Of a stretch of 21,580 nt of DNA, positions 16,424-17,697 are shown piece after piece. Position 1 is the stretch's first letter. Each line of letters begins with the position of its first letter. The notes below the pieces were generated by a model that saw only the letters and a list, made by a program, of their open reading frames with translations, was not told the origin of the DNA and made no database searches. The stretch lies in the IMG/VR virus record IMGVR_UViG_2724679140_000004, positions 1 through 21,580 of that record. One strand, given 5' to 3'. Source of the DNA: a virus. Lineage: Duplodnaviria > Heunggongvirae > Uroviricota > Caudoviricetes. The position numbers were made by a program, and so were the translations under genes.

Positions 16424-17064
16424 AAATTACAAAGCTTAAATGATTCATCATACAATCGTCGTTACAGGGGAAACCTGCGGTGCAGCAAGATACAGAAATG
16501 TAAGCAAACTAACAATAAGCAAGCACAGCATATTCGGAATTAGTTATAATTTTAACGATGCAATGATTATTCAGTATGCAATTCAATCAATTCCCAAAAA
16601 AACCGCCATGAAGAAGGTTGGTCAATGCAAGAGATGAATTTTTTGATTGTTATAAAACCAGGGCGTCGAGCACCTCCCGAAGTATTCCGTGCTGTATGGA
16701 TACTGTGGTTTCCCGCTAAACCGACTCTTTAAACCACCCTCGCACTGAGGAGCGCCTCTGTGATGCTTTTACAACACCAGAATGATGCATCACCGACCCT
16801 GCCAGGAAATACAAAATCTCCACCGTAACTCTCCACAAGCACTCCTGGGGTTGTGCGCTCTTTCCCTGTGCACTGTGTCAGTTCAGACACCCCCTAATAT
16901 CCTTTACGGCTCGTGCCAGGCGTTCTGACTTATTATCGTCTCATACCGAAGGCGTCACACCAAAGGGATTCCACCAAAAGATAAATAAAATGATATTTTT
17001 CAATGAGTTACAGCTATGATGAGCTATACTTTTTAAACGATAATATGCATCCAGAAGGCTGAAA

Positions 17065-17394
17065 ATGATGGAATGGATAGTGATTGACACTGTTATATGC
17101 TCATCAAGTGGAATAACGTTTTCTACAGTATGGAATAAAATAAAATTGATACTCTGGTATCAGTCAGATGTATTCCTGCCACCGGGAAGCACTTTCACAC
17201 CGATTAATTCCGGTATCATCATGAATAATAAACAAATTCCATTAACAATTTACAACGTAACTCCATTTAACAAAAGATTCTGGTACCTCATCAAAAACAA
17301 CAAAGATTGCCCGGGAAAATCAGTAAAAACAAAAAGTAAATGCCCAAACAACCAGTGTATGCTGACAATATGTCCGTATGGATTATATAAATGA
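17065..17394 (+). CDS. Plus-strand accessory ORF of unknown function (109 aa) in an AT-rich island
   Basis: GAAGG 6 nt upstream of the ATG. Hydrophobic N-terminus and a Lys/Cys-rich C-terminus ([30 protein letters not shown]). Opposite in orientation to every phage gene here; followed by a hairpin at 17449-17467. Confidence 0.45.
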
Positions 17395-17439
17395 CAGCAT
17401 ATGAATTGATTCATCCCCCCCCTCAGACTCACCACACAT

Positions 17440-17468
17440 AATAAAAAAGCCCCTCAGGATGAGGGGCT
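17440..17468. terminator. Strong hairpin closing the AT-rich island
   Basis: GCCCCTCA-GGA-TGAGGGGC stem; a U-run follows on the minus strand and a weaker UUGUAU follows on the plus strand. Confidence 0.55.
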
Positions 17469-17697
17469 TGTATACGCATTTACTACCATCATTGTCATAG
17501 TGCCGGGTGCCTCCCGGTGAATTCTGCAATGACCAGACAGAATCCGCTGCTTGCTACTCTCGCTAATGCAACCCAACCTGACGGTCATTATGCCCCGCCG
17601 CTGAGGGGGATTCACCATGCTGGGACTTTTTAACAAATTGCACTAAAATAACACAACGATTAATCGACAAAATCGTGACTGACTTAACATTTTATTT

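Follow-up and report, generated by a model that had tools for sequence, protein, structure and literature searches.

A probable IraM/IraL-family anti-adaptor gene carried as cargo in the Q-lysis interval of a lambdoid prophage

The window analysed in this study is a stretch of viral DNA of 21,580 nucleotides (Caudoviricetes; IMG/VR record IMGVR_UViG_2724679140_000004, positions 1 to 21,580), and it represents a lambdoid prophage with an HK97-type head. Read from high to low coordinates, the minus strand carries hok/sok, DUF968, RusA, Q, a TerB-like gene and two holins, followed by the M15 endolysin, HNH, terminase, portal, protease, capsid and tail genes. The gene studied here lies between Q and the lysis cassette, and the main features of this interval are listed in Table 1. 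The methyltransferase remnant in it has approximately 69% nucleotide identity to intact methyltransferase genes in loci L004-L006. A search for tRNAs in the Q-lysis interval found none, and a tRNA-Lys-like remnant of about 76% identity was located at 16257-16338. The block 18034-18187 is conserved in other prophages. The best E. coli relatives of this prophage have a backbone that is 91-94% identical and a different Q-lysis module. The module 16390-18173 is shared at 90-96% identity with the mouse strain SK6988, in which an IS200 is found between iraM and STnc100, and the same iraM module was also found alongside other Q and replication modules.

Table 1. Features in and around the Q-lysis interval of the window.
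Feature	Position	Strand	Evidence or remark
Holins and M15 endolysin	14182-15222	-	After the TerB-like gene
TerB-like gene, head of the lysis cassette	15463-15960	-	phrog_632, E=3e-59; downstream border of the slot
Conserved upstream block AAATAAAATGATATTTTTCAATGAGTTACAG	16983-17013	+	Kept in the window, SK6988, STEC299 and A8
Putative -10 hexamer TATACT	17025-17030	+	Alignment with iraL and phage 2851
Shine-Dalgarno sequence AGAAGG	17053-17058	+	9 nt before ATG 17068; read from the sequence
Mechanical ORF	17065-17394	+	ATG start, 109 aa
iraM-family CDS	17068-17394	+	108 aa plus stop; one codon shorter than the mechanical ORF
STnc100 sRNA gene	17437-17650	-	Rfam RF02076, 109.2 bits (gathering 47), full-length model; convergent with iraM
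GC-rich hairpin between the convergent units	17447-17469		Terminator scan and folding
Phage DNA methyltransferase, C-terminal remnant	17698-17952	-	phrog_6952, E=1.7e-21, profile positions 96-177 only
Terminator-like hairpin, candidate tR' (inferred)	18158-18173	-	Terminator scan; 83-98 nt past the Q stop
Q-like antiterminator	18256-19077	-	phrog_127 and phrog_25523, E about 1e-110; upstream border of the slot

The original prediction, made from the sequence alone, described a plus-strand ORF of 109 aa in this interval. The ORF is present as described, but its start has to be moved by one codon. The first ATG is not conserved, and relatives have AAG at that place, whereas the homologues all begin with M-[EKN]-W at the second ATG. 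In a locus of 97% identity, PGAP also placed the start at the equivalent of this second ATG. Because the start at 17068 is conserved and that at 17065 is not, we define the gene as 17068-17394, which encodes 108 aa. The SD-like GAAGG pointed out earlier belongs to AGAAGG, which is kept in the prophage-type relatives SK6988, STEC299 and A8, and the shorter AAGG is kept in iraL and in phage 2851.

The composition of the ORF is atypical. Its GC content was 0.343, compared with 0.506 for the window and 0.49-0.55 for the flanking phage genes, and its GC3 was 0.37, compared with 0.47-0.61 in nine flanking phage genes. A GC content as low as this was reached in just 2.4% of the 327-nt windows of the sequence. 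The description of the ORF as conspicuously AT-rich is thus justified, although it is not the lowest-GC stretch of the window, as 4541-4867 has a GC content of 0.29. All supported genes of the window except the iraM-family ORF are on the minus strand. Minus-strand genes overlap the remaining large ORFs of the plus strand, which had no match or matched only small PHROGs of "unknown function", and a syntenic annotated prophage has zero plus-strand CDS over the corresponding stretch. That this ORF is the only credible plus-strand gene of the window is plausible, short of being proven.

The product belongs to the known IraM/IraL/RssC family of RssB anti-adaptors. Its residues 2-108 of the 109 matched NCBIfam NF007393 (anti-adapter protein IraM) with 145.5 bits, above the cutoff of 121, and 77 residues could be aligned gap-free to 8twd_A, a fragment of IraM of known crystal structure, with E=3e-30. 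The identity was 54-55% to K-12 IraM (55% by BLASTP) and 61% to the IraL-type protein (P0018/EC958; P0018 and the EC958 protein are 97% identical to each other). PGAP labels both the 97%-identical and the approximately 80%-identical genes as iraM. The closest database cluster was 98% identical, and its members come exclusively from Logan/ENA assemblies; the next-nearest relatives, at approximately 80% identity, are "IraM" proteins of E. coli from marmot, mouse and kangaroo rat. The window protein groups with these approximately 80%-identical proteins in one clade, apart from the IraL clade. The genes iraM and iraL are each reported to form a class of at least 95% identity (PMC4045071). By this measure the window gene is not iraM in the strict sense, since its identity to K-12 IraM is far below that class and its flanks are not homologous to those of the K-12 gene. 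It is a member of a known and routinely annotated family, and its clade is uncharacterised.

With only 93 clusters, most of them of about 110 aa, recovered when 1.84 billion representatives were searched exhaustively with a profile, the family is small and narrow. By blastn, some member of the family was found in 1723 of 5426 complete E. coli genomes, the window allele (at least 95% identity) in 3 of them, and relatives at 80-90% identity in 36. The PHROGs entry for the family is phrog_4407, "unknown function". A Pfam scan of the window protein, K-12 IraM and the IraL type gave no match even at E<=10, and precomputed tables nevertheless assign the family to PF11183 PmrD. The PmrD-like beta-barrel of the N-terminal domain (IraM residues 1-78) is inferred from homology to 8twd_A. 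Homology had been proposed as a check of the prediction together with structure modelling; the former gave the family, whereas the AlphaFold2 model built on a 19-sequence alignment was poor and uninformative (mean pLDDT 43.8), so that the fold is assigned by sequence homology.

Studies have shown that IraM, whose N-domain has the PmrD fold, binds RssB and occludes its alpha4-beta5-alpha5 face and its segmented helical linker, and that this occlusion excludes sigma-S from delivery to ClpXP (PMC10844676). IraL has been found by experiment to bind RssB and to stabilise RpoS in the log phase; unlike IraM, it contacts the RssB N-domain only (PMC4045071). We compared the 14 IraM residues that touch RssB, which fall into three clusters (PMC10844676). 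The window protein was identical to K-12 IraM at 8 of these 14 positions and to the IraL type at 12. W22, K26, F18, W30, I61 and Y62 are the same in the window protein, K-12 IraM and the IraL type, and they are invariant or nearly so over 16 aligned sequences. At T13, L75, H63 and I64 it is K-12 IraM that is the outlier, and the window protein has the family consensus. Two contact residues, I42 -> T and C14 -> S, differ from both characterised proteins. The family and the contact residues suggest that this variant would bind RssB and stabilise RpoS, and the details may differ in its clade because IraL and IraM already differ in the RssB domains that they bind. The host RssB is not encoded within the window.

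Together with the state of the gene described below, these results lead us to believe that the gene at 17068-17394 is very probably prophage cargo whose product works as a cytoplasmic anti-adaptor of the IraM/IraL family. The main competing explanation is that the protein acts as a PmrD-like connector on another response regulator, by protecting phospho-PmrA or by acting on a phage or host regulator, and not on RssB. PmrD is a PhoP-induced connector that protects phospho-PmrA. The N-domain of IraM shares its fold (PMC10844676), the family profile reached PmrD (2jso/4hn7) over the whole N-domain with E=0.0095, the PF11183 tags point in the same direction, and the window clade is only 54-61% identical to characterised members. 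However, the match to IraM is far closer (E=3e-30), and the 12 contact residues shared with the IraL type are those of a protein that binds RssB. PmrD is shorter, at about 85-88 aa, and its target differs from that of the IraM family. Its match is limited to the N-domain (positions 1-76/77 of the family to residues 1-79), so there is no PmrD counterpart of the cysteine tail of the family, which lies beyond the reach of the 88-residue PmrD chain. The window protein itself also had no PmrD match in the Pfam copy searched. We consider an action on a regulator other than RssB quite improbable.

The cysteine tail had been noticed in the original prediction, and it is real: the Lys-rich tail has four Cys in the last 30 residues, C82, C93, C98 and C103 (109-aa numbering), in the pattern CP-x(9-11)-C-x4-C-x4-CPYG. 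These four are among the most conserved positions of the family, together with P104-Y105-G106 in closer relatives. All 19 close relatives keep these residues unchanged; when 31 relatives with identities as low as 21% were compared, three Cys never varied, and conservation was at least 90% for the fourth Cys and for the Pro that comes next. In the structure paper, IraM residues 79-107 were removed as unstable, the tail was called less conserved and flexible, and neither cysteine nor zinc is mentioned for it (PMC10844676). The tail may form a Cys4 metal site or act as a redox switch, and this is a reasonable idea. For a zinc knuckle, homology gave no support, since a search of the C-terminal tail alone against PDB sequences had no match at E<=10.

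K-12 IraM (YcgW/ElbA; structure 8TWD) is similar to the window protein in several respects. The two are of the same length class and align without gaps, and they share the PmrD-like N-domain, the 8 RssB contacts and the CP...C...C...CPYG tail. Both genes are AT-rich and horizontally acquired, and the K-12 gene adjoins the e14 prophage. In contrast to these likenesses, the homology is confined to the coding region, and the flanks share nothing. The K-12 gene lies outside the Q-lysis slot and has no STnc100. The K-12 locus might have been a collapsed copy of the prophage slot, but this idea had no support, because its flanks (ycgX-ymgL-ymgK) are non-homologous and the coding region alone matches. 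IraL of UPEC CFT073, a paralogue of IraM, is closer in sequence to the window protein, and the IraL-type gene of EC958 occupies the same slot in the same orientation; its prophage shares the DUF968-RusA-Q (273 aa) arrangement of the window. Unlike the window protein, IraL has 111 aa with a KQQSP extension and belongs to a separate clade.

The slot is a recurrent one. Except for K-12, every locus examined (SK6988, STEC299, A8, ECOR29, EC958 of the IraL type, and phage 2851) has the family member in a stretch bounded on one side by Q, at times with a methyltransferase and tRNAs, and on the other by the genes for esterase, holin and lysozyme, and it is always oriented against Q, holin, lysozyme and esterase. 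The same position and orientation hold for the flanking genes detected in 80 IMG/VR loci. For example, the Stx2c phage 2851 has the order Q, tRNAs, stx2A, stx2cB, STnc100, iraM homologue, esterase fragments and holin; its iraM homologue is convergent and unannotated, and the slot is directly downstream of stx2c. A homologue was present in 46 phage records (tblastn), mostly of Stx2c or Stx2a phages, and it is unannotated in many of them. In the other Stx2 phage records with a homologue, the slot is probably next to stx as well. Independently, STnc100 has been placed 75 nt downstream of stx2 (PMC12370729).

Upstream of the gene, the putative -10 hexamer was located by alignment: iraL of EC958 has TATACT at the corresponding place, and phage 2851 has TATAAT. 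A transcript that starts from this -10 would have a 5'UTR of about 30 nt, similar to that of iraL, whose start codon is about 33 nt downstream of the TSS mapped by 5'RACE (PMC4045071). The likeness to iraL ends at this point, and the sequence upstream of the -10 of iraL is unrelated to that of the window. No good -35 is present upstream of TATACT, and a consensus promoter scan called no promoter upstream of the gene; its total of 4 hits was at the shuffle expectation of 4.4. In the prophage-type clade only, the -10 is preceded by the conserved block listed in Table 1. This block forms the left boundary of the iraM module and may be bound by a regulator; homology with L004, L005 and L006 begins at 16974-16983.

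K-12 IraM is induced by Mg2+ starvation via PhoP. A motif scan for the PhoP box KGTTTA-N5-KGTTTA found a match of 10/12 at -63 of K-12 iraM, whereas in the 400 nt upstream of the window gene no match of at least 10/12 was found. The sole 9/12 match, at -351, is at chance level, as there are 61 such matches in the window. The window gene probably answers to an inducing signal other than the PhoP/Mg2+ one of K-12 iraM.

Downstream of the gene, the hairpin that the original prediction had read as the gene's own strong terminator does exist. It has a 10-bp stem and a 3-nt loop (z = -5.1), and its folding energies were -18 and -20.3 kcal/mol. However, its T-run is on the minus strand (AAGCCCCTCATCCTGAGGGGCTT-TTTTATTATG), and the plus-strand sequence after it, GTATACGCATTT, contains no U-run. 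It coincides with the terminal stem-loop of the STnc100 match. Because the U-tract is on the minus strand, the hairpin is mainly the intrinsic terminator of STnc100, and with the plus-strand sequence that follows it, it is probably a weak or shared terminator at best for the ORF. In A8, the hairpin stays at the 3' end of iraM though no STnc100 match adjoins it, the sole one being approximately 2.5 kb away. The pairing of iraM with STnc100 was also found in phage 2851, STEC299 and SK6988, and 52 of the 76 IMG/VR loci with enough downstream sequence have an opposite-strand STnc100-like sequence that starts 30-63 nt past the stop codon. With the exception of K-12 iraM, the sampled IraM-family genes suggest one common phage slot adjoining STnc100.

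A second alternative is that the ORF is a decaying or silent remnant, intact in appearance, whose expression or use has been lost in a degraded Q-lysis interval. The surroundings are indeed degraded, with the methyltransferase remnant, the tRNA-Lys-like remnant and approximately 1.1 kb without ORFs, and the consensus scan called no promoter. AT-rich genes are also typically silenced by H-NS. Against this, the gene shows the mark of purifying selection, with a Nei-Gojobori dN/dS of 0.07-0.19 in comparison with SK6988, STEC299, A8/ECOR29 and K-12, and the ORF is intact in 80 of the 80 IMG/VR viral loci that encode relatives, although these loci are not independent samples. The Shine-Dalgarno sequence and the -10 are conserved, and an identical protein is encoded in a second prophage backbone, contig L008, with a different Q and a helicase-primase replication module. 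The original prediction would have been abandoned for a decaying remnant if the ORF were absent or frame-disrupted in otherwise syntenic prophages with no expression. The ORF is missing from the most syntenic backbones only because those carry a different Q-lysis module, and it is intact wherever its own module occurs. Such a remnant is very improbable in our opinion.

The guess of a toxin or a superinfection-exclusion protein, and with it a membrane or secreted factor, is hardly credible: a hydrophobic N-terminus, a Cys/Lys-rich tail and a moron position adjoining the lysis genes speak for it, but the N-terminus, hydrophobic as it had been described, has a maximum Kyte-Doolittle value (19) of 1.36, opens with the acidic MEWIVID without a basic n-region and can be aligned, gap-free, with the start of the N-terminal domain (residues 1-78) crystallised from the soluble IraM, RssB contacts I4 and I6 included, and is not a signal peptide or TM segment, while a PADLOC defence search with the window gene gave no match and the homologues of the IraM/IraL family are cytoplasmic RssB binders.

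The cytoplasmic anti-adaptor is consistent with the moron that the original prediction had proposed. The evidence supports a cargo gene that was acquired horizontally, is probably transcribed independently within the Q-lysis interval and would alter the physiology of the lysogen: the GC content is atypical, the orientation is opposite to that of its neighbours, the SD and the -10 are conserved, the coding sequence is under purifying selection, and the same slot is used in unrelated lambdoid backbones. The pattern of presence and absence is that of a moron as well, since the gene is absent from the most syntenic backbones and present with other Q and replication modules. As for signals of its own, the -10 aligns with that of iraL but was not scored by the consensus scan, and the hairpin is shared with STnc100. 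Like the classical lambdoid morons and Q-lysis cargo (stxAB, bor/iss and lom), the gene is an autonomous cassette of atypical GC among the genes of the late operon. Unlike them, it runs against the late operon and not with it; therefore, a boost by Q antitermination such as that of stx would not be expected.

From these observations, we propose the following mechanism. In the lysogen, the gene would probably be transcribed from its own promoter with the -10 TATACT. The anti-adaptor would bind the response-regulator-like adaptor RssB via its PmrD-like N-terminal beta-barrel and would cover the alpha4-beta5-alpha5 face and the helical linker of RssB, which would then be unable to hand RpoS (sigma-S) to ClpXP. 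RpoS would build up and increase the expression of the general stress regulon. Once the prophage is induced, Q-modified polymerase would be expected to cross iraM in antisense, as judged from the lambda paradigm, because the gene is antisense to the late operon and convergent with STnc100; such read-through may interfere with its expression in lytic growth.

A wider reading can be drawn from the same data, in which the family is phage cargo at one lambdoid slot with STnc100, the Cys4 tail is a sensor, the gene answers a signal of its own, and antisense transcription shuts it off. We regard this combination as rather doubtful. If it were true, the convergent STnc100/anti-adaptor pair would be a conserved sRNA/anti-adaptor cassette just downstream of the stx site, and the Cys4 tail would serve to sense metal or redox state or to confer stability, so that the stabilisation of RpoS becomes conditional. 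The window clade, which has no PhoP box, would answer a signal unlike those of IraM and IraL, and antisense late transcription on induction would link the host stress response to the state of lysogeny or lysis.

In this study, the gene is real but largely ordinary, and no new kind of system is revealed. Its interest is modest and lies in the fixed slot with its STnc100 pairing (near stx in phage 2851), in the invariant Cys4 tail and in the non-PhoP upstream region. There is also a benefit for annotation, as family members are often unannotated in phage records and carry "unknown function" in PHROGs. The level of RpoS governs tolerance to stress, acid and oxidants, and it affects the virulence of E. 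coli. A prophage with its own RssB anti-adaptor can shift the RpoS set-point of its host by lysogenic conversion.

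In this study, the iraM-family gene was found to be paired with an sRNA gene. STnc100 lies convergent with it, and one hairpin is common to both genes. The same convergent pairing was found in 52 of the 76 IMG/VR loci that had enough downstream sequence for this check. Phage 2851 (locus L007) carries stx2cB and an iraM homologue, with STnc100 in between, and the mouse E. coli strain SK6988 has four additional STnc100-like copies nearby.

The annotation of this family was inconsistent. Precomputed tables label it PF11183 (PmrD) for the window gene (17068-17394), the Logan ERR3328067 contig (L008) and locus L009, but the Pfam copy that we searched at E<=10 matched neither the window protein nor K-12 IraM nor the IraL type. 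In PHROGs the family is phrog_4407, "unknown function", and the intact ORF beside stx2c is unannotated in most phage records, including phage 2851 and many Stx2c/Stx2a records.

The four C-terminal cysteines of the protein were invariant or nearly so among relatives down to 21% identity, and closer relatives share the motif CPYG. In the published IraM structure, the C-terminal tail was taken out and termed less conserved. A metal or redox site is one possible role of the Cys tail.

Features of the window and of related loci (residues numbered on the 109-aa ORF, 17065-17394)
Feature	Position	Strand	Remark
STnc100 sRNA gene	window 17437-17650	(-)	convergent with iraM-family gene
STnc100 in relatives' loci	L007 4835-5046; L004 5380-5587; L001 7247-7460
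Intact IraM-family ORF, phage 2851	L007 4501-4815 = FM180578.1 24248-24562		adjoins stx2c
C-terminal Cys4 tail	residues 82-106; nt 17308-17382
iraM homologue + lipid A deacylase gene	L005 5087-6620 (A8); L006 5016-6547 (ECOR29)		one strand
Terminator-like hairpins with T-runs	window 16400-16423 and 16211-16230	(-)
tRNA-Lys-like remnant	window 16257-16338		~76% identical to a prophage tRNA-Lys
84-aa ORF	window 17698-17952	(-)	phrog_6952, profile positions 96-177 only
123-aa ORF	window 4555-4926	(-)	flanked by tape-measure gene and tail-assembly gene T
hok-type toxin ORF + sok	window 21249-21573	(-)	Rfam sok match 114.6 bits
TerB-like "tellurite resistance" gene	window 15463-15960	(-)	phrog_632

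Every ORF in the ~1 kb at 15961-16982 is at most 65 aa, and ARAGORN found no tRNA in this interval; the two hairpins and the tRNA-Lys-like remnant located there could be tRNAs in decay or sRNAs that are not yet catalogued. The 84-aa ORF covers just the C-terminal portion of a phage DNA methyltransferase, and it is a leftover of the one located after Q in related prophages.

The 123-aa ORF lies where the window is richest in AT (GC 0.29), and the syntenic prophage of strain CM2010-0578/1 lacks this ORF. Its N-terminal LACLFFISAC looks like a lipoprotein signal, and Pfam and PADLOC searches of the ORF gave no match. It looks like a second moron of the window. The hok/sok pair lies beside the DUF968 and RusA genes at the prophage's early end, a Qin-like placement, and Rfam reports the sok match on hok's own strand. 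The lysis cassette begins with the TerB-like gene, directly followed by two genes for holins and one for an M15 endolysin.

The E. coli strains A8 and ECOR29 have an LpxR-family gene for a lipid A deacylase 3' of the iraM homologue on the same strand, and the two genes make up one cargo unit in the slot that the iraM-family gene occupies in the window. The Logan contig encodes an identical 109-aa product, with another Q gene and a helicase-primase replication module next to it; therefore, the allele has moved between prophage backbones.
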